29,158 nt of DNA from the IMG/VR virus record IMGVR_UViG_2731957841_000003; one strand, 5' to 3'. The position numbers and the translations under genes are program-made. The stretch is from a virus (lineage: Duplodnaviria; Heunggongvirae; Uroviricota; Caudoviricetes). Numbering within the stretch: the stretch's first letter is position 1; every line of letters starts with the position of its first letter. This document shows, in pieces, positions 9,599-29,158 of this stretch. The notes beneath the pieces are model-generated. The model did not search any database, was not told the DNA's origin, and saw nothing but the letters and a program-made list of their open reading frames with translations.

Positions 9599-9796
9599 TT
9601 AATGCATTACGGGAGCGATACTGATCGTTATCGCTGCTTCACCTTTCGCTCTGCCCTTACGGATGGCCGCATAAAAATCTGTCATTGCTTCCCGATTTTC
9701 TTTCAGTCGGTTCAGATCAACATCCAGAACGTCAGCGATTTGTTGTGCAGTCATCCGGCACGCTGCCAGAGACTCGACTTTCGAATACGGAATCAT
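9599..9796 (-). CDS. Small hypothetical protein with HTH-like segment (possible remnant of a packaging/terminase small subunit gene)
   Basis: 65-aa ORF (…MTAQQIADVLDVDLNRLKE…). Its 5' end overlaps the 3' end of the upstream ORF by 65 nt. Weak call. Confidence 0.25.
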   Translation of the reverse strand: MIPYSKVESLAACRMTAQQIADVLDVDLNRLKENREAMTDFYAAIRKGRAKGEAAITISIAPVMH

Positions 9797-16365: not shown

Positions 16366-16908
16366 TCAAGCCGTTTTTTGAGCGAATGATTCTCGCATGG
16401 GAATGTATAGCGCATACTCAGCAACGGCCAACCAATTAGCAATTCGCTTTTCGCATGTGCTAAAACACCACTCTGGGTGTGCATCATTTAGCAATTCAGC
16501 CATTTTGCGTTTGGTCATCCCCCGCCCCTCATACCGTTGCCGAAGGACGCTAATCAATCCTGGATGCTCTGCCAGCACCTCACTTATGACCCGATCAATA
16601 CATAACGCCTCTGCATCAGTACAATGCGCCAGCCAGCTCTTTTGCTTACCGTTAATCATATCCCGCAAAAAAGCCTCAAGTTCAGACTTGTTCAGACCTG
16701 CTTTTTTCATCCTCCGGAGCGCCTCGTTAATTGCCGTTTTTGTCAGCTTTTTAGAGGCCAACAACTGGTTGAACATATTCCCCGTCTTACCGCCGCCAAT
16801 ATACGACCAGCGCCCCCACATGCGCAGTTTTCCCTGAATCCAGACACTTTCCAGCGTGGTGAGACGAAGGTGTTCCCCGCTTTTGCCTGTATTTGTTGGG
16901 TAAATCAT
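16366..16908 (-). CDS. Late-gene antiterminator Q-like protein
   Basis: 180 aa from MIYPTNTGKSGEHLRLTTLESVWIQGKLRMWGRW...; ATGA overlap with the upstream DUF1364 gene; lies immediately upstream of terminator, tRNAs and lysis genes (classic Q position). Family assignment by context and partial motif recollection. Confidence 0.6.
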   Translation of the reverse strand: MIYPTNTGKSGEHLRLTTLESVWIQGKLRMWGRWSYIGGGKTGNMFNQLLASKKLTKTAINEALRRMKKAGLNKSELEAFLRDMINGKQKSWLAHCTDAEALCIDRVISEVLAEHPGLISVLRQRYEGRGMTKRKMAELLNDAHPEWCFSTCEKRIANWLAVAEYALYIPMRESFAQKTA

Positions 16909-17195
16909 AAATAACCTTCCTTTCTCCAGATTTCTTGCGTGCGAAAAACACCTTCTGCATGCATCAGGCGTAAATCTTCTTTGGTGTAATCGCTTGTTTT
17001 TACCCGCCCGTCGATTAAATCGTGGCATGAGCTACAGGCAATCGCCGCCTGCATATCGTGTGGTTTTGTCGCTGTTCCGCACGTTCCCGCCAGTCGGTAA
17101 TGCGCCAGCACAGACGTTTCCGGATCGTGATTGCTGTAGCCAAGAATTCTGACGGTGCACATCCGCCCCCGCGCCGCTTTACGTAAATCCACCAT
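16905..17195 (-). CDS. DUF1364-family protein (YbcO-like, Cys-rich putative nuclease)
   Basis: 96 aa with conserved Cys/His pattern (C...C...CSSCHD); translationally coupled to flanking genes (TAATG and ATGA overlaps); DLP12 ybcO occupies the equivalent position upstream of Q (recollection). Confidence 0.55.
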   Translation of the reverse strand: MVDLRKAARGRMCTVRILGYSNHDPETSVLAHYRLAGTCGTATKPHDMQAAIACSSCHDLIDGRVKTSDYTKEDLRLMHAEGVFRTQEIWRKEGYL

Positions 17196-17794
17196 TACGC
17201 AAACTCCAGCAGCTGCGCGGCCACATTTTCGACTTGTTCCGGAGAGGAAAATTTACGGAACAGAATCCAGTTCCACAGCACATTCAGAACAGATTTATAA
17301 ACCTGCTGAAACTCGGTTTCGTCCATATTCGCAAAAGCGATAGATTTTGCCCGACGCCCGCGGCTACCGTCCGGATAAAAATGTTCGGTGTAAAATCCAG
17401 CCTGAATGGTTACCCACTCGCGAAAAGCCTCAAACGACTTTAGCAATGCCGTATCCCGGGTTCTGCGTGTCGCAACTGTATTCAGATATTGCTCTGCGGC
17501 ATCACTCAGGGCTGGCGTGTGTTCCCGACCAACTGATTCGCACAAGTAATCCACGAAACCAGACAGCAGTTCTCGTTCGCGAGGTGTGATCGCCCCACCG
17601 ACCGGAGTCCAGTAATCGAATCCCAGTTGCAGGAGTTTGAAAAAACGCTTGTGGAATGCGTAGTTACGCACACGCTTAAAGTCTGCGTGTATCCACTCAC
17701 CTATTTTGATTTGATGCAGAAAATCGCAACTCTCCGGCGTCGCCGGGAGAAGTAAACCAGAAGAGGTTTGTTTGACCAGTTGTATATGCGCCAT
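17195..17794 (-). CDS. DUF1367-family lambdoid phage protein (YbcN/YdfU-like)
   Basis: 199-aa ORF; position upstream of DUF1364 and Q as in DLP12/Qin (recollection). Confidence 0.55.
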   Translation of the reverse strand: MAHIQLVKQTSSGLLLPATPESCDFLHQIKIGEWIHADFKRVRNYAFHKRFFKLLQLGFDYWTPVGGAITPRERELLSGFVDYLCESVGREHTPALSDAAEQYLNTVATRRTRDTALLKSFEAFREWVTIQAGFYTEHFYPDGSRGRRAKSIAFANMDETEFQQVYKSVLNVLWNWILFRKFSSPEQVENVAAQLLEFA

Positions 17795-18074
17795 TTCTCA
17801 ATCTCTCGATGGCGCAGCGCAGCAGATGCCAGTTGTTCAGGCTGACGAATAAAGTATAAATAAACTGGCTATGGTGTAAAGCCCCACATAGCATGAACAA
17901 ACACTACATATCAAATAGCTGGTACAAGGATAGAAATACGACACTTATTATTAAAAACGATTAGATAAATTACATTTTAATGTTATGCAAAAGTTCTTTT
18001 TTATCATAACATTTCAATAAAAGCATTACAGATGCAATCATCCCGTCATCATCAATTATTTAAGGTGGTTAAAC

Positions 18075-18161
18075 ATGGAAAATAACAAGTTCGCACATCT
18101 CGCTCCTTTTTTATCCGTAATCCTTTTCGCTTGTTGTTTTATATGGGCATTATTTTTATAA
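18075..18161 (+). CDS. 28-aa hydrophobic peptide (MENNKFAHLAPFLSVILFACCFIWALFL): possible small membrane protein or type I toxin-like peptide
   Basis: ATG preceded by AAGGTGG at 6-nt spacing; single predicted transmembrane helix; sits in an AT-rich intergenic stretch. Confidence 0.4.
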   Translation: MENNKFAHLAPFLSVILFACCFIWALFL

Positions 18162-18552
18162 AGTAGCCACATGATAAGTTGCTGGAATCATATTTCCCAC
18201 TCAAGTCATTAACATTTGATAAGATATATCTAAAAGGACGCCTTTACATTATTTATGCGTATATAATTTATTTATATACACAGTAAAGGTATCCTGGGAA
18301 AATATTTATCGTTAAAAAATACATCATAAATAATTAAGCTGAAATTTCAGAACACAACTAATACACACAATAAGGTTCAGTAACAGTAATCTATGTGGAC
18401 TACATCGAGATTTTTTGATTAAACTTTAATAACTTATTCCTAACACACAGAATGCATAAACTAAAAGTAAAACAAATAGTTATACGAAAAACAACCATAT
18501 TTATTCTATCTTCTCCTCTAATCAACATATCAATTATGTGTTTCATAACAGC

Positions 18553-18592
18553 TTGACATAACCCTCCAAAAGATGCATTTTTAATGCATGTT
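18553..18592 (+). promoter_or_regulatory. Putative promoter (-35 TTGACA at 18553..18558) with overlapping NsrR-type operator AAGATGCATTT-T-TAATGCATGTT (18570..18592)
   Basis: Perfect -35 hexamer; 11-1-11 inverted repeat with ATGCAT cores matching the NsrR consensus as I recall it; about 15 nt upstream of the SD of the yeaR-like gene. Confidence 0.55.
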
Positions 18593-18607
18593 TTGGAGGA
18601 GGTGGTT

Positions 18608-18946
18608 ATGACACACAAGAGAATTCCTAAAGATTGGGTAATCAAACGCTCAACTCCGTTCTTCACAAAAGAGAACGTACCTTCAGCGTTATTAACACAT
18701 CATAATACAGCAGCAGGTGTTTTTGGGCAGTTGTGCGTAATGGAAGGCACTGTAACATATTATGGTTTTACTGATGAGAATGCTACTGAACCGGAGATAA
18801 AAGTAGTCATTAATGCTGGCGCTTTTGCAACAAGCCCACCACAATACTGGCACCGTGTTGAACTAAGCGATGATGCTCAGTTTAATATTAACTTTTGGGT
18901 CGCTCCAGACTTCTCGGGCGAAAAAGTCTATAGCACCAAAAAATAG
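18608..18946 (+). CDS. YeaR-like DUF1971 protein (TehB-related)
   Basis: 112 aa from MTHKRIPKDWVIKRSTPFFTKENVPSALLTHH...; strong SD GGAGGAGGTGG; similar to E. coli YeaR as I recall it (...RSTPFWNKQTAPAG...); opposite strand to flanking phage genes. Confidence 0.7.
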   Translation: MTHKRIPKDWVIKRSTPFFTKENVPSALLTHHNTAAGVFGQLCVMEGTVTYYGFTDENATEPEIKVVINAGAFATSPPQYWHRVELSDDAQFNINFWVAPDFSGEKVYSTKK

Positions 18947-18975
18947 ATGATCATATTAAAAATGCTTTAACAGTC

Positions 18976-19012
18976 AGACCCGGCAGGGCTATCCCCGACG
19001 GGTCTCATTTTT
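18976..19012 (+). terminator. Candidate rho-independent terminator for the yeaR-like gene
   Basis: Stem agacccg/cgggtct (large loop) followed by CATTTTTG, 30 nt after the stop codon. Confidence 0.45.
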
Positions 19013-19566
19013 GTAAATATATTGGTTCTACATTGACAGGAGACTTCAACCATAAGAAGTAATCTGAATACTTGAGCAATAAATTTACTTAAGATTAATG
19101 AGCGCACCTTGCCGGACAAAGATAAACCAAGGTAACACCTTTTTTCTAGCCAGTATGTAATCAATCAGAAAGCCGCTCCATAAGAACAACAGCAAGACAA
19201 TAAATTGCCATTACAGCCGCAATAGCCAGCGCACATTTGAGAACCAGCACGACAACCCCCTGTATTAGACGCACACCAGTCCTGATAAATATGAGGCTGT
19301 ATCGTCAGTGATTCAATACAACTATTGGGTATAGTTTCTGTGATTTTATTCTGTAGAAATGGAACACAACAACCAGTCACCACCAGCACTTCCTTAAATG
19401 CTCTAAGTCAGAAACAAGCCAACATTTTAGTCCGCTTTGAGCGATCTGCAGACATTGCTAGCAGCCTTCTGTGTGAATTCTCAGGGAGCAGGTCGGCATA
19501 GCATCACGTTGAGGCTCTTACCCTACTTGTTCACACCAACCCTAACTCCACAGACTGATTCATAAA

Positions 19567-20568
19567 TTAGTAATCTGCGTGTTTCGCACTTTTCAGAAAT
19601 GCTTTCATATTTTCATTAGGTCGCTCAATTTCGAAGTTACTTCCATATAACTCTTGTAATTTTGGCCATAACTTACTTAATAACCCTCTCCTGCGATAAA
19701 ATGGATGTATCCAAACGGTAGATAGGTACGGAGAATTTGCATTTGAATTGTTTATTGTGACCAGCCCAACTAAACATTGTCGATAACCACTATTATCCAT
19801 TGATTGTATTTCTTCGACGAATGGATACGCGATTACATCAGTCCAACCATGATCGGTTGTATCCCATTGCATTCCGTCATGACATTCCTTCGACTGATAG
19901 CGGCGTAAAGCTACACACGCGAGCTTTTGCCAATCTGGAGAATTAATTGTGATCTCTTCATCGTATGACGCGCCTATTGGAGCGGGTATTGGTCTGATTA
20001 ATCCAGCATGGCATTCATCATAGAACTTCATGTTTCCCTCAGAAACGTTGTGTACGTTGGGTTGCTCCATGTGTGCGCCATTCAAAAATAGCTCTGATAG
20101 TAGTGTATCTACACTGTAATCTTTATTGATTATTGTCGGCTTAGAGTTTTTCTTATTAAGGCCGCGAGTAACGATTTTTTGATCAATGTTAACAACATGG
20201 AATAATCCGTCGGGGAGGCTAGCGAACCACGATGGGGCATCGGACCAGAATAGCATGCCTTTTGTACTTCTTAAGAGTTTAATTAAGTTAATACAAGCTT
20301 CTTCACTAGTCTTGCCGTTGATGCGAAGTATGTTAGGACTAAAGTAATATTCATCCATATCAGGGAATGCAGCTTCGCAAAACTCCTGTACATAATTTAG
20401 CACCTGGATTCTACAGAGATCATCATAGCTGGTAATAACTAAGGGGGTATCTTCATTACTATTATGATTATCAATAATGCAATCTATAGCGAGACTTACT
20501 GCTTTGCGTATCACTTCAGTTGAATCTAACGACTCTAAAAATTTTGTCTTTCGTGTGCGAATATCCAT
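19567..20568 (-). CDS. Hypothetical 333-aa protein with C-terminal GNAT-like acetyltransferase motif (second gene of AT-rich cargo cassette)
   Basis: C-terminal ...LSTVWIHPFYRRRGLLSKLWPKLQEL... resembles GNAT motif A (beta4-alpha3, R-x-x-G); N-terminal ~250 aa unassigned; AT-rich codon usage; 15-bp gap to upstream gene. Confidence 0.5.
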   Translation of the reverse strand: MDIRTRKTKFLESLDSTEVIRKAVSLAIDCIIDNHNSNEDTPLVITSYDDLCRIQVLNYVQEFCEAAFPDMDEYYFSPNILRINGKTSEEACINLIKLLRSTKGMLFWSDAPSWFASLPDGLFHVVNIDQKIVTRGLNKKNSKPTIINKDYSVDTLLSELFLNGAHMEQPNVHNVSEGNMKFYDECHAGLIRPIPAPIGASYDEEITINSPDWQKLACVALRRYQSKECHDGMQWDTTDHGWTDVIAYPFVEEIQSMDNSGYRQCLVGLVTINNSNANSPYLSTVWIHPFYRRRGLLSKLWPKLQELYGSNFEIERPNENMKAFLKSAKHADY

Positions 20569-20583
20569 GTATGACCTGCGCTA

Positions 20584-21606
20584 TTAAAATTCATGAATGA
20601 ACGGTTTGTCATCTGGTTGCAAAATGGTGGTTTTATTCGTTGCTACATTTAAACTGTTGTAGAGCATAATTGCCAGGTTCGATGCATTTTCAATCAGCGT
20701 TTCAAGATCCTGGTCTGTAATCACTACGAGGTTCCCTTCTTTATCCTTTCCACCACGATGCACTAAGTGATTTCGATTGAGGGTTGCCAATTCAATAGCT
20801 TCTATCGGACAGTCTTTTTGTACTTTTATATCGAATGTAGCTTCATAGCGGTCGATTACCTTTTTAGTGCTATGCCAGCTTGCACTGATCAAGTGTTCCT
20901 TGATTGACCTGATTAGCTCTCCCCTAATTTTCTCGATGGGTTCACCCTTGAAAGGCAACGCAGCAATATCTTTGCTTACTTTAAATTCAGTCTTACCTTT
21001 TTCTATACAATTGGCTATGTAGACATCATCTTTCTCTATAGAATTAATGAATAGCTCAACATAAAGCGTTTCCAAAGCTGTAATAACATTCGTGTAGAGC
21101 AAACTAAGCAAGTGGTTTTTTTGCTGTTGTTCAGTTTTATCTTTTGCAAGTTTTTTTATTTTATCGATATTATCAATGAATTTTAAATACGGATTACCGG
21201 AAGACGTTACAGCGTCGTAGATATCATCATCGTACCAATCATCTATATTATTTGAGTTTCCAGACCAGTCAAAACATTGTGTTTGTAATTCATCTACTAA
21301 TTCCTCAATATACTCAGATTTAACATATTGACCGAAGATGGATTGTAGTTCTTCGCTCGCATCATACGGCCCGCCATATATGTAAGCATAGCCACCTTCT
21401 CTACTTTCATACGGACAAGCATTTGCCGGATCTTCAAAGTTTTCAAAGAACCAGTTTTTCATTACTTCGAGTTGATCTTTTTTGCTTATGTATTTTAAAG
21501 ATTTTAGTGGAACTTTCTTTCCATTAACCTCGAAAACAATTTTCACGATGTAACGCTCCCTTGTATCAATTGCGCAACTATTATACCACAGCGAAATACA
21601 GGGCAT
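20584..21606 (-). CDS. Hypothetical 340-aa protein with C-terminal R-x4-H (HEPN-like) motif (first gene of AT-rich cargo cassette)
   Basis: ORF listed as 363 aa; preferred start is the ATG at 21606 (MPCISLWYNS...) preceded by AAGGAGG. C-terminal ...ELATLNRNHLVHRGG... carries R-x4-H; strongly AT-rich. Confidence 0.5.
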   Translation of the reverse strand: MPCISLWYNSCAIDTRERYIVKIVFEVNGKKVPLKSLKYISKKDQLEVMKNWFFENFEDPANACPYESREGGYAYIYGGPYDASEELQSIFGQYVKSEYIEELVDELQTQCFDWSGNSNNIDDWYDDDIYDAVTSSGNPYLKFIDNIDKIKKLAKDKTEQQQKNHLLSLLYTNVITALETLYVELFINSIEKDDVYIANCIEKGKTEFKVSKDIAALPFKGEPIEKIRGELIRSIKEHLISASWHSTKKVIDRYEATFDIKVQKDCPIEAIELATLNRNHLVHRGGKDKEGNLVVITDQDLETLIENASNLAIMLYNSLNVATNKTTILQPDDKPFIHEF

Positions 21607-21744
21607 AACCTGCCTCCTTAAACTAACATACCATGAGCCAGCAATGTCCGCTATTGGCACAAAGCGGACAACCACGCTAGCTCTCCCCTGTGCCAGAAAA
21701 ATGTCAATTTACATATGAACTAATGCTCTTTGATCTAGTAACGT

Positions 21745-24476: not shown

Positions 24477-26373
24477 CATCACTCGCACGGCTTCCGGTGC
24501 TAATGCTGGCGGCGGAAACCTCACCGATCGCGGCGAAGGTTTCGTACACGATCTGACGTCACTGGCGCGGGACGTAGCCACTGGCGTACTGGCCCGTTCA
24601 ATGGATCTGGACATCTATAACCTTCATCCGGCACACGCTAAACGCATTGAGGAAATTATCGCTGAAAATAAACCGCCCTTTTCTGTTTTCCGCGACAAAT
24701 TCATCACCATGCCTGGCGGGCTGGATTATTCCCGCGCCATCGTGGTTGCGTCCGTAAAAGAAGCACCAATTGGGATCGAGGTCATCCCCGCGCACGTCAC
24801 TGAATATCTGAACAAAGTACTGACTGAAACCGATCATGCCAACCCTGATCCGGAAATCGTGGATATTGCCTGCGGTCGCTCCTCTGCCCCGATGCCGCAG
24901 CGAGTAACAGAAGAAGGAAAACAGGATGATGAAGAAAAACCGCAACCATCTGGAACAACGGCAGTTGAACAGGGAGAGGCTGAAACAATGGAACCGGACG
25001 CAACTGAACATCATCAGGACACGCAGCCGCTGGATGCTCAGTCACAGGTAAATTCTGTTGATGCGAAATATCAGGAACTGCGGGCAGAACTCCATGAAGC
25101 CCGGAAAAACATTCCATCAAAAAATCCTGTCGATGCCGATAAATTGCTTGCTGCATCACGTGGTGAATTTGTTGACGGAATTAGCGACCCGAACGATCCG
25201 AAATGGGTAAAGGGGATCCAGACTCGCGATTGTGTGTACCAGAACCAGCCAGAAACGGAAAAAACCAGCCCGGATATGAATCAACCTGAGCCAGTAGTGC
25301 AACAGGAACCGGAAATAGCCTGCAATGCCTGCGGCCAGACTGGCGGGGATAACTGCCCTGACTGTGGTGCGGTGATGGGCGACGCAACATACCAGGAAAC
25401 ATTCGATGAAGAGAGTCAGGTTGAAGCTAAGGAAAATGATCCGGAGGAAATGGAAGGCGCTGAACATCCGCACAATGAGAATGCTGGCAGCGATCCGCAT
25501 CGCGATTGCAGTGATGAAACTGGCGAAGTCGCAGATCCCGTAATCGTAGAAGACATAGAGCCAGGTATTTATTACGGAATTTCGAATGAGAATTACCACG
25601 CGGGTCCCGGTGTCAGTAAGTCTCAGCTCGATGACATTGCTGATACTCCGGCACTGTATTTGTGGCGTAAAAATGCCCCCGTGGACACCACAAAGACAAA
25701 AACGCTCGATTTAGGAACCGCTTTCCACTGCCGGGTACTTGAGCCGGAAGAATTCAGTAACCGCTTTATCGTAGCACCTGAATTTAACCGCCGGACAAAC
25801 TCCGGAAAAGAAGAAGAGAAAGCGTTTCTGAGGGAATGCGCAAGCACAGGAAAAACGGTTATCACTGCCGAAGAAGGCCGGAAAATTGAACTCATGTATC
25901 AGAGCGTTATGGCTTTGCCGCTGGGGCAATGGCTTGTTGAAAGCGCCGGACACGCTGAATCATCAATTTACTGGGAAGATCCTGAAACAGCAATTTTGTG
26001 TCGGTGCCGTCCGGACAAAATTATCCCTGAATTTCACTGGATCATGGACGTGAAAACTACGGCGGATATTCAACGATTCAAAACCGCTTATTACGACTAC
26101 CGCTATCACGTTCAGGATGCATTCTACAGTGACGGTTATGAAGCACAGTTTGGAGTGCAGCCAACTTTCGTTTTTCTGGTTGCCAGCACAACTATTGAAT
26201 GCGGACGTTATCCGGTTGAAATTTTCATGATGGGCGAAGAAGCAAAACTGGCAGGTCAGCTGGAATATCACCGCAATCTGCGAACCCTGGCTGACTGCCT
26301 CAATACCGATGAATGGCCAGCTATTAAGACGTTATCACTGCCCCGCTGGGCTAAGGAATATGCAAATGACTAA
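24477..26373 (+). pseudogene. recE: Exonuclease VIII RecE, 5'-truncated (C-terminal ~2/3 retained; first in-frame ATG at 24601)
   Basis: 590-aa ORF from the 24601 ATG whose frame is open upstream to 24421; C-terminal nuclease region; TAA overlaps the recT ATG (ATGACTAA). K-12 RecE is 866 aa by memory. Confidence 0.75.
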
Positions 26374-27175
26374 GCAACCACCAATCGCAAAAGCCGATCT
26401 GCAAAAAACTCAGGGAAACCGTGCACCAGCAGCAATTAAAAATAACGACGTGATTAGTTTTATTAACCAGCCATCAATGAAAGAGCAACTGGCAGCAGCT
26501 CTTCCACGCCATATGACGGCTGAACGTATGATCCGTATCGCCACCACAGAAATTCGTAAAGTTCCGGCGTTAGGAAACTGTGACACTATGAGTTTTGTCA
26601 GTGCAATCGTACAGTGTTCACAGCTCGGACTTGAGCCCGGTAGCGCCCTCGGTCATGCATATTTACTGCCTTTTGGTAATAAAAACGAAAAGAGCGGTAA
26701 AAAAAACGTTCAGCTAATCATTGGCTATCGCGGCATGATTGATCTGGCTCGCCGTTCAGGTCAAATCGCCAGCCTGTCAGCCCGTGTTGTCCGTGAAGGT
26801 GACGAGTTTAATTTCGAATTTGGCCTTGATGAAAAGTTAATACACCGCCCAGGAGAAAACGAAGATGCCCCTGTTACCCACGTCTATGCTGTCGCAAGAC
26901 TGAAAGACGGAGGTACTCAGTTTGAAGTTATGACGCGCAAACAGATTGAGCTGGTGCGCAGCCAGAGTAAAGCTGGTAATAACGGGCCGTGGGTAACTCA
27001 CTGGGAAGAAATGGCAAAGAAAACGGCTATTCGTCGCCTGTTCAAATATCTGCCCGTATCAATTGAGATCCAGCGTGCAGTATCAATGGATGAAAAGGAA
27101 CCACTGACAATCGATCCTGCAGATTCCTCTGTATTAACCGGGGAATACAGTGTAATCGATAATTCAGAGGAATAA
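26366..27175 (+). CDS. recT: Recombinase RecT (single-strand annealing protein)
   Basis: 269 aa from [27 protein letters not shown]...; matches my recollection of K-12 RecT; canonical position after recE. Confidence 0.9.
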
Positions 27176-27230
27176 TTCAGCCTGGCGGTGTAATGCACCG
27201 CCAACTTGAAATATTTTTATGAGAAAAATT

Positions 27231-27380
27231 ATGAGATATGACAATGTTAAACCATGTCCATTTTGTGGTTGTCCATCAGTAACGGTGAAAGCCATTTCAG
27301 GATATTACCGAGCGAAGTGTAACGGATGCGAATCCCGAACCGGTTATGGTGGAAGTGAAAAAGAAGCACTCGAACGATGA
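27231..27380 (+). pseudogene. ralR: Restriction-alleviation protein/type I toxin RalR (Lar) with in-frame TGA at codon 50
   Basis: MRYDNVKPCPFCGCPSVTVKAISGYYRAKCNGCESRTGYGGSEKEALER then TGA; the same frame continues NKRTTGNNNGGVHV to a TAA at 27423..27425 overlapping the ydaC ATG, giving the 64 aa I recall for Lar. Confidence 0.6.
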
Positions 27381-27417
27381 AATAAACGAACCACTGGAAA
27401 TAATAATGGAGGTGTTC

Positions 27418-27606
27418 ATGTATAAAATTACCGCCACTATTGAAAAGGAAGGTGGCACTCCTACTAACTGGACAAGATATTCAAAATCTAAACTAACGAA
27501 ATCAGAATGCGAAAAAATGCTCTCAGGTAAAAAAGAAGCAGGCGTTTCCAGAGAGCAGAAAGTAAAACTGATAAATTTTAATTGCGAGAAACTTCAGTCC
27601 TCGTGA
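27418..27606 (+). CDS. ydaC: Rac-type small protein YdaC
   Basis: 62-aa ORF MYKITATIEKEGGTPTNWTRYSKSKL... with SD GGAGG at 5-nt spacing; position between ralR and xis. Confidence 0.7.
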   Translation: MYKITATIEKEGGTPTNWTRYSKSKLTKSECEKMLSGKKEAGVSREQKVKLINFNCEKLQSS

Positions 27607-27705
27607 ATTGCATTGTATTCAAATTAAAACTTCATAGCTGATTATTAATAATCAACATCGGGCGTCAATTTAAGTCTAACATTGGCGCCTGCCAGAGGTG
27701 ATGCG

Positions 27706-27921
27706 ATGGCACAAGTAATCTTTAATGAAGAGTGGATGGTTGAATACGGCCTGATGCTTCGCACTGGTCTGGGGGCCAGACAAATTGAAGCATACCGCCA
27801 GAACTGTTGGGTGGAAGGCTTCCACTTCAAACGAGTATCTCCTTTAGGGAAGCCAGACAGTAAGCGAGGGATTATCTGGTATAACTATCCAAAGATAAAT
27901 CAGTTTATCAAAGACTCATGA
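27706..27921 (+). CDS. xisR: Excisionase (XisR/YdaQ-like)
   Basis: 71 aa from [43 protein letters not shown]...; stop 1 nt before the int ATG. Confidence 0.75.
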
Positions 27922-27922
27922 T

Positions 27923-29158
27923 ATGTCTAAATTACCAACAGGTGTCGAGATTCGAGGTAAATACATTCGCATCTGGTTCATGTTTCGAGGAAAACGATGT
28001 CGGGAAACATTGAAAGGCTGGGAGGTTACTAACAGTAACATTAAAAAAGCTGGGAATTTAAGAGCGTTGATAGTTCATGAAATCAATTCCGGTGAGTTTG
28101 AGTATTTAAGACGTTTTCCCCAGCCCAGCACTGGGGCAAAAATAGTGACAACGAGGGTCATAAAAACGTTCGGGGAGCTTTGTGATATCTGGACAAAAAT
28201 TAAAGAAACAGAGTTAACAACAAACACAATGAAGAAAACGAAATCACAATTAAAAACACTCAGGATAATAATTTGTGAGAGTACTCCGATATCGCATATT
28301 CGTTATAGCGATATCTTAAACTACCGGAATGAACTGCTGCATGGAGAAACGCTTTACCTGGATAATCCAAGATCCAACAAAAAAGGAAGAACCGTGCGCA
28401 CAGTTGATAACTATATCGCCCTGCTCTGTTCGTTGTTACGTTTTGCGTATCAGTCGGGATTTATATCAACCAAACCATTTGAAGGAGTAAAGAAATTACA
28501 GAGAAACAGAATAAAGCCTGACCCGTTATCTAAAACAGAATTCAATGCATTAATGGAAAGTGAAAAAGGACAGAGCCAGAACTTGTGGAAATTTGCCGTA
28601 TACTCCGGGCTTCGTCACGGGGAACTGGCTGCTCTGGCGTGGGAGGATGTGGATTTCGAGAAGGGAGTTGTGAATGTCAGAAGAAACCTGACGATACTGG
28701 ATATGTTCGGTCCCCCAAAAACAAATGCGGGGATCCGGACGGTAACACTACTGCAGCCTGCTCTTGAAGCACTGAAGGAGCAATACAAACTGACCGGGCA
28801 TCATCGCAAAAGCGAAATCACTTTTTATCATCGGGAGTACGGCAGAACCGAAAAGCAAAAACTGCATTTTGTTTTCATGCCCAGAGTGTGTAACGGAAAA
28901 CAGAAACCTTATTACTCGGTAAGCAGTTTGGGTGCGAGATGGAATGCAGCAGTAAAACGTGCTGGTATTCGCCGCCGTAATCCGTACCATACGCGGCATA
29001 CTTTTGCCTGCTGGCTGTTGACGGCAGGAGCGAACCCGGCGTTTATAGCCAGCCAGATGGGGCATGAAACTGCGCAGATGGTGTATGAAATTTACGGTAT
29101 GTGGATTGATGACATGAACGACGAACAGGTAGCCATGTTGAATGCGCGGTTATCGTAG
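27923..29158 (+). CDS. intR: Tyrosine site-specific integrase (Rac IntR-like)
   Basis: 411-aa ORF with the C-terminal catalytic region ...HTRHTFACWLL...GHETAQMVYEIYGMW...; ends at the last base of the window. Confidence 0.9.
   Translation: MSKLPTGVEIRGKYIRIWFMFRGKRCRETLKGWEVTNSNIKKAGNLRALIVHEINSGEFEYLRRFPQPSTGAKIVTTRVIKTFGELCDIWTKIKETELTTNTMKKTKSQLKTLRIIICESTPISHIRYSDILNYRNELLHGETLYLDNPRSNKKGRTVRTVDNYIALLCSLLRFAYQSGFISTKPFEGVKKLQRNRIKPDPLSKTEFNALMESEKGQSQNLWKFAVYSGLRHGELAALAWEDVDFEKGVVNVRRNLTILDMFGPPKTNAGIRTVTLLQPALEALKEQYKLTGHHRKSEITFYHREYGRTEKQKLHFVFMPRVCNGKQKPYYSVSSLGARWNAAVKRAGIRRRNPYHTRHTFACWLLTAGANPAFIASQMGHETAQMVYEIYGMWIDDMNDEQVAMLNARLS

Follow-up and report, generated by a model that had tools for sequence, protein, structure and literature searches.

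The window considered here, that is, the whole stretch of viral DNA that was analysed (29,158 nucleotides), represents a Rac-type prophage at ttcA/intR, in agreement with an earlier note on this DNA that had described the unit under study as prophage-borne. This unit is a small plus-strand cassette located between the nin/Q and replication modules, on the opposite strand to its neighbours, and E. coli LD39-1 and LSN03-016011/A have identical cassettes in their own Rac-type prophages, likewise at ttcA/intR. The genes to its left (16366-17794, minus strand) encode a DUF1133 Q-like antiterminator, a DUF1364 protein and a DUF1367 protein, while those to its right, also on the minus strand, comprise two unannotated cargo ORFs, a DUF977/Ren-like gene, a DUF1627 gene, a DnaC-like loader and an O-like/YdaU replication protein. 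The earlier note had the remainder of the prophage transcribed from the minus strand, which is true for positions 312-24475 but not for the recE/recT/int arm (24601-29158), which is encoded on the plus strand. The cassette falls within a low-GC island (17.8-21.7 kb) of 28-44% GC, compared with about 50% in the flanking phage modules. To judge from its sequence, the cassette thus has the attributes of a moron, since it appears to be an autonomous unit inserted between phage modules and is of atypical composition.

All elements of the cassette that the earlier note had listed (the TTGACA hexamer, an 11-1-11 repeat over the -10 region, a strong Shine-Dalgarno sequence, a 112-aa ORF, and a hairpin with a U-tract) were found in place. 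The -35 hexamer TTGACA (18553-18558, plus strand) is read directly from the sequence, and the inferred -10 hexamer CATTTT (18576-18581, plus strand) lies 17 bp from it; the latter is weak, with 3 of 6 consensus matches, although A-11 and T-7 are kept. A candidate NsrR-type operator (18570-18592), likewise read directly and then scored with a matrix, consists of the inverted repeat AAGATGCATTT-T-TAATGCATGTT, in which 9 of the 11 arm positions are complementary and positions 7-12 coincide with the -10 hexamer. The strong Shine-Dalgarno region GGAGGAGGTGG (18595-18605, plus strand) contains a GGAGG that ends 8 nt before the ATG at 18608, from which a 112-aa DUF1971 (STM1808-type) ORF extends on the plus strand to 18946, including its stop codon (18944-18946). 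The cassette is closed by a terminator-like structure (18976-19012, plus strand), in which the hairpin AGACCCG...CGGGTCT (18976-19005) is followed by CA-TTTTT, with TTTTT at 19008-19012.

It should be noted that a simple promoter scan called no plus-strand promoter, either at the cassette or upstream of it, and that a strict terminator scan did not call the cassette hairpin and U-tract; that a generic scan called neither element is attributed to the -10 being only CATTTT. With a folding energy of -19.4 kcal/mol (z = -1.9), equalled by 7 of 200 shuffled sequences, the terminator is plausible but modest. A related hairpin plus T-run is present in phage 666R9, which carries a divergent allele. 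From the position of the -35 and -10 hexamers, we infer a transcription start near 18588. Translation from 18608 is favoured by the RefSeq records of identical prophages and by all orthologues, while an in-frame upstream ATG at 18584 lies inside the operator and lacks a Shine-Dalgarno sequence. Several public gene calls (proteins P0001 and P0002) nevertheless begin at 18584, giving products of 120-121 aa (MHVLEEVVMTHK...).

To evaluate the candidate operator, a symmetric NsrR position weight matrix was derived from Table 4 of Mehta et al. 2015 (PMC5320621), using 18 sites listed there, namely the ChIP-seq-positive 11-1-11 sites of CFT073 together with the validated yeaR and ygbA sites. The earlier note had proposed an NsrR-type operator and would have been refuted by a poor score; the site at 18570-18592 scores 26.9 bits, compared with 30.0 bits for ytfE (leave-one-out), 24.2 for hcp, 22.0 for yeaR, 21.8 for ygbA and 18.3 for hmp. 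Set among 26 distinct CFT073 sites, it ranks second of 27, with only ytfE scoring higher, and the next best NsrR match anywhere in the 29-kb window reaches 14.4 bits. The exact tail probability of 26.9 bits per position is 1.5e-10 under genome composition and 3.8e-9 under the local AT-rich composition. The predicted operator spans both the -10 hexamer (operator positions 7-12) and the predicted transcription start, so that holo-NsrR bound there would occlude RNA polymerase in a classical occlusion arrangement. No NarL heptamers (TACYYMT) were found between 17755 and 19054, and no FNR boxes near the cassette promoter. Hence this promoter, unlike that of yeaR, looks responsive to NsrR only, and YeaR-style nitrate activation is not supported.

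Homology searches with the protein revealed a closely knit subfamily (73-82% identity) with representatives in Salmonella, Klebsiella, Raoultella, Kluyvera, Citrobacter, Leclercia and the Vibrionaceae, and 80 orthologue loci from representative genomes were compared, of which about 52 from the Enterobacterales could be scored. At nearly all of these 52 or so loci, the highest-scoring NsrR match within the roughly 12-kb locus is centred 27-39 bp upstream of the ATG, with scores that are mostly 24-31 bits, so the operator proposed in the earlier note not only ranks high among published E. coli sites but is also conserved in position. The promoter is equally recognizable: 55 distinct orthologous promoters share a -35-like hexamer (TTGACA, TTTACA, TTGACG or TTGCCT), a spacing of 17-18 bp and a -10 at operator positions 7-12, where TATTTT, TATATT or CATATT takes the place of the CATTTT of this prophage, and GGAGG or AGGAG is found at the equivalent Shine-Dalgarno place. 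This conserved layout supports the proposed promoter despite its weak -10. Most Vibrionaceae orthologue loci have no NsrR site, which indicates that the gene is not tied to NsrR everywhere. In the Citrobacter loci (L025-L050), the NsrR site that precedes the DUF1971 orthologue lies within a palindrome of about 39 bp (GCATCTATAAGATGTATATTAAATGCATCTTATAGATGC), whose outer arms resemble additional partial NsrR half-sites and may reflect extended or multimeric NsrR binding. Taken at the level of sequence, the prophage cassette looks like a whole promoter-operator-gene unit captured from an enterobacterial chromosome.

The encoded protein aligns well with Pfam DUF1971 (PF09313), scoring 92 bits against a cutoff of 23.1, with residues 14-94 covering profile positions 1-80 of 80. 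Its fold is a small cupin-type beta-barrel, like that of the solved structures 3DL3, 3BB6 and the N-domain of 3M70. Among solved structures, that of Aliivibrio fischeri, 3DL3, matches best (E = 3.5e-59, about 80% identity), with the E. coli YeaR structure 3BB6 far behind (E = 1.6e-24, 43% identity). The designation as a YeaR/DUF1971 paralogue in the earlier note therefore holds for the DUF1971 family but not for a close relationship to YeaR, from which the prophage gene also departs in having neither yoaG nor NarL heptamers. A much closer relative is the Salmonella homologue P0014, which is 79% identical over its full length with no gaps and whose gene lies directly downstream of dsbB in the order dadA-ycgB-fadR-nhaB-dsbB. 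Because dsbB is STM1807 (PMC4143323), the adjoining Salmonella gene is STM1808, a listed member of the NsrR regulon (PMC7527575); tehB homologues were in addition predicted as NsrR targets in enterobacteria by Rodionov et al. 2005 (PMC1274295). An alignment of 13 sequences shows the histidines H31, H32 and H82 to be invariant, and the prophage protein has all three. STM1808 is reportedly a zinc metalloprotein dependent on H32 and H82, and is said to promote the growth of Salmonella under nitrosative stress and in mice. On these sequence comparisons, the family assignment is refined from a YeaR paralogue to an STM1808-type DUF1971 protein.

The name "TehB family protein", which is carried by some RefSeq records and by PDB entry 3dl3, raises the question of whether the gene is instead a tellurite-resistance determinant unrelated to NO. 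There is a weak match to the NCBIfam TehB equivalog over the N-terminal domain, yet it scores 49 bits against a cutoff of 303 and covers only model positions 11-106 of 289, and the likeness extends only to the N-terminal DUF1971 domain of Haemophilus TehB. TehB is a SAM-dependent methyltransferase, and the SAM-methyltransferase domain is absent here. As the TehB model is matched over its N-terminal domain alone, the protein is not a TehB methyltransferase; membership of that family is effectively refuted by the sequence, and a role in tellurite resistance unconnected to NO is extremely improbable.

The inverted repeat described in the earlier note is present, but it is the core of a longer quasi-palindrome, 17+3+17 in organization (18563-18599), with the arms CCTCCAAAAGATGCATT (18563-18579) and AATGCATGTTTTGGAGG (18583-18599). 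The arms, each of 17 nt, show 94% complementarity, and the right one takes in the Shine-Dalgarno sequence. This arrangement allows for a different mode of control, in which the palindrome, as an RNA hairpin, would mask the Shine-Dalgarno sequence, replacing or accompanying regulation by NsrR. For example, read-through transcripts from upstream would be silenced at translation, while transcripts from the cassette's own promoter, which would lack the left arm, would be translated. Folded as RNA, the full palindrome has an energy of -22.9 kcal/mol (z = -5.3) with CCUCC paired to GGAGG, and three other alleles fold at -16.9 to -19.7 kcal/mol. Among the 12 equal-length alleles that were analysed for pairing (out of 13 operator-region alleles in 38 phage and prophage copies), both partners are altered in three pairs; at two positions of the outer stem the change is from C-G to A-U. 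This covariation is not significant, however, as at least as many two-sided pairs arise in 135 of 500 shuffles, and a covariation score at least as high in 37 of 500. In addition, pairs 16-46 and 17-45 of the outer stem are open in 5 of the 12 alleles, one allele folds no better than its shuffles (z = -1.0), the Shine-Dalgarno sequence is not paired with an upstream arm in the chromosomal orthologues, and the predicted start at about 18588 lies inside the hairpin, with no plus-strand promoter found by the scan upstream. Given the non-significant covariation and an outer stem that is broken in 5 of 12 alleles, the hairpin is a minor rival to control by NsrR, and we regard it as unlikely.

The same region is unusually variable among otherwise almost identical copies. 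Positions 18562-18600 form a hotspot with 5.5-12% divergence, whereas the flanks show no more than 3% and the coding sequence about 0-1%. Between the window and locus L083, for instance, 5 of the 16 differences over 1.5 kb fall within these 39 bp and none within the coding sequence (hypergeometric P = 3e-5), and allele families that are set apart by 5 operator positions have identical coding sequences. Three allele families can be distinguished (GATG/GGAGG, CACG/TGAGG and GGTG/ATGGG), two of which create a perfect TATAAT inside the operator, and the outer 7 bp of the quasi-palindrome are not conserved in about 40% of alleles. Across alleles, NsrR scores range from about 18 to 28 bits, the lowest being 18.2, and the commonest allele among the IMG/VR phages has a weaker site of 20.0 bits; the alleles designated A, B and C score 26.9, 20.0 and 26.2 bits. 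A weaker commonest allele and an unusually polymorphic operator indicate that purifying selection on operator strength may not be strong. The hotspot might stem from adjustment of NsrR affinity, from template switching at the palindrome or from conversion patches.

Such variability is what might be expected if the NsrR-like site were an inherited relic or belonged to another regulator, with the gene being constitutive, silent (e.g., silenced by H-NS) or controlled by a phage protein. The modest scores of the commonest allele and of the 18.2-bit allele point in this direction, as do the 760 bp upstream of the cassette, which have a GC content of 28-30%; low GC is typical of H-NS targets. Against a relic, all alleles score about at or above the hmp site (18.3 bits), which is a validated NsrR target, and the NsrR protein that would read them is identical between E. 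coli strains (PMC5320621). Moreover, the motif is the NsrR consensus and is also found at non-phage chromosomal orthologues, which makes a phage-specific repressor unlikely. We therefore consider it improbable that the site is a relic or serves a different regulator.

Comparison with the intact prophage of LSN03-016011/A shows how far the window has decayed. About 10 kb of head and tail genes are absent, so that most morphogenesis genes are gone, and a further 3.8 kb or so is missing that comprises ydaT, ydaS, racR, kilR and the N-terminal part of recE, i.e., the immunity region; relative to locus L120, the deletion junctions lie at window positions 9636 and 24455. With its immunity region and early promoters missing, the window prophage is cryptic. 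Retained in this decaying prophage are trkG, the lysis genes, the nin/Q genes and the intact DUF1971 cassette. The Rac prophage of E. coli K-12 lacks the cassette through a large deletion from ydaW to rzpR, which is probably why the gene has gone unstudied.

Two further features of the surrounding low-GC DNA deserve mention in their own right. Directly to the right of the cassette is a variable cargo slot (19444-21643), where homology to Rac-type prophages ends at about 19444-19478 and resumes at about 21643 at a DUF977/ydaW-like gene. In the window, the slot is occupied by a 333-aa ORF (19567-20568) and a 363-aa ORF (20584-21675), both on the minus strand, one of which is weakly GNAT-like and the other weakly HEPN/RES-NTD-like (sub-threshold Pfam matches), and LD39-1 and LSN03-016011/A carry unrelated hypothetical genes at the same place. 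PADLOC returned no match for these two ORFs or for the DUF1971 protein. On its gene content, the slot looks like a hotspot for defence or accessory genes. To the left, in an unannotated spacer of about 760 bp with 28-30% GC between the DUF1367 gene and the DUF1971 promoter, lies a 28-codon ORF, MENNKFAHLAPFLSVILFACCFIWALFL (18075-18161, plus strand), which is strongly hydrophobic and has a good Shine-Dalgarno sequence, AAGGTGG, 6 nt upstream. It is intact in 37 of 37 related prophage copies, with a mixture of synonymous and non-synonymous changes, and matches no Pfam or NCBIfam family; judged by its sequence, it could encode a small membrane protein or a type-I-toxin-like peptide. An Rfam search of positions 17000-20000 at a permissive E-value gave no match.

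The cassette is present in 466 of 5426 complete E. coli genomes; NCTC9066, LD39-1 and APEC 102026 are among the natural carriers, and WP_000149055.1 is an accession of its protein. Among deposited phages, 3 of 50,697 records contain it in the same context (vB_EcoS-666R9, -673R7 and -613R10), and the 36 IMG/VR loci used here were all chosen because they carry it. The protein forms its own PHROG, of unknown function, and the plasmid collection yielded only distant homologues of the chromosomal type. Searches of the accessible literature on NsrR with DUF1971, on NsrR with prophage or moron, and on DUF1971 found neither a description of the prophage gene nor data on NsrR binding or derepression by NO for this cassette, and a cold-plasma transcriptome preprint does not mention it.

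Taken together, these data lead us to propose, with a probability of roughly 0.7, that the host NO sensor NsrR controls a self-contained moron of a Rac-type lambdoid prophage, whose product is an STM1808-type DUF1971 cupin. The interpretation of the earlier note is thereby supported, with its family assignment refined: its claims of a prophage location, a DUF1971 protein and an NsrR-type operator are borne out, and responsiveness to NO is predicted from them. In the mechanism that we envisage, the sigma-70 promoter (TTGACA, 17 bp, CATTTT) would be active on its own, and holo-NsrR, bearing its Fe-S cluster, would bind the 23-bp operator and exclude RNA polymerase. Nitrosylation of the NsrR cluster by NO would cause the protein to leave the DNA, allowing synthesis of an mRNA with a short leader (about 20 nt) and a strong Shine-Dalgarno sequence that would end at the hairpin and U-tract. 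The product, presumably a small metal-binding cupin, may then add to the nitrosative-stress tolerance of the lysogen, as reported for Salmonella STM1808.

The orientation of the cassette suggests a more elaborate scenario. The cassette points head-on into the early-right transcript, which must cross positions 19012-18553 on its way toward the nin genes and the Q-like antiterminator. An NsrR roadblock, or convergent transcription derepressed by NO, could in principle couple the late genes and lysis to host NO; the very strong operator, replicated during induction, could titrate scarce NsrR and so derepress the host regulon; and the operator polymorphism could represent tuning of this coupling. 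We offer this scenario as speculation and consider it quite improbable.

If the proposal of an NsrR-controlled moron is confirmed, then a Rac-type prophage supplies about 9% of sequenced E. coli with a third DUF1971 protein, pre-wired to the host NO sensor. The cassette would also illustrate cleanly how a phage can capture a complete unit of a host regulon (promoter, operator and gene), and how such a unit can persist in an otherwise decaying prophage. That would be relevant to the part that cryptic prophages play in stress tolerance, for instance in the inflamed gut or inside phagocytes. We would like to stress that the proposal is not conceptually new, as NsrR-regulated DUF1971 genes and host-regulated morons are both established.

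Among known systems, the closest counterpart is STM1808, whose product (113 aa, compared with 112 aa here) shares 79% identity and the invariant H31, H32 and H82 with the prophage protein, and whose gene has its own NsrR operator of 26.5 bits overlapping the -10 in the same promoter layout. The two differ in that STM1808 is chromosomal (dadA-ycgB-fadR-nhaB-dsbB) rather than prophage-borne, whereas the E. coli copy resides on a Rac-type phage; in the -35 hexamer, which is TTGTTT with 18-bp spacing in Salmonella and the consensus TTGACA in the prophage; and in the operator, which is highly polymorphic in the prophage copy. E. coli YeaR resembles the prophage protein in belonging to the DUF1971 family, in its cupin fold and in its regulation by NsrR, which is predicted for the prophage gene, the yeaR-yoaG operon being activated by NarL and repressed by NsrR. 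It is, however, only 43% identical, and the prophage gene is followed not by yoaG but by a terminator and non-coding DNA, has a promoter with no NarL heptamer or FNR box, and carries a much stronger operator (26.9 versus 22.0 bits). The Aliivibrio fischeri "TehB" of structure 3DL3 differs in being chromosomal, and the Aliivibrio loci have no upstream NsrR site. Classical lambdoid morons under host control include bor and lom of lambda and sodC of Gifsy-2. The cassette is like these in possessing its own predicted promoter and terminator, in its place between phage modules, in its atypical GC content, and in being, as we would expect for this cassette, expressed from the prophage to the likely benefit of the host; it differs from them in that the regulatory input can here be named from the sequence, as a predicted NsrR operator.
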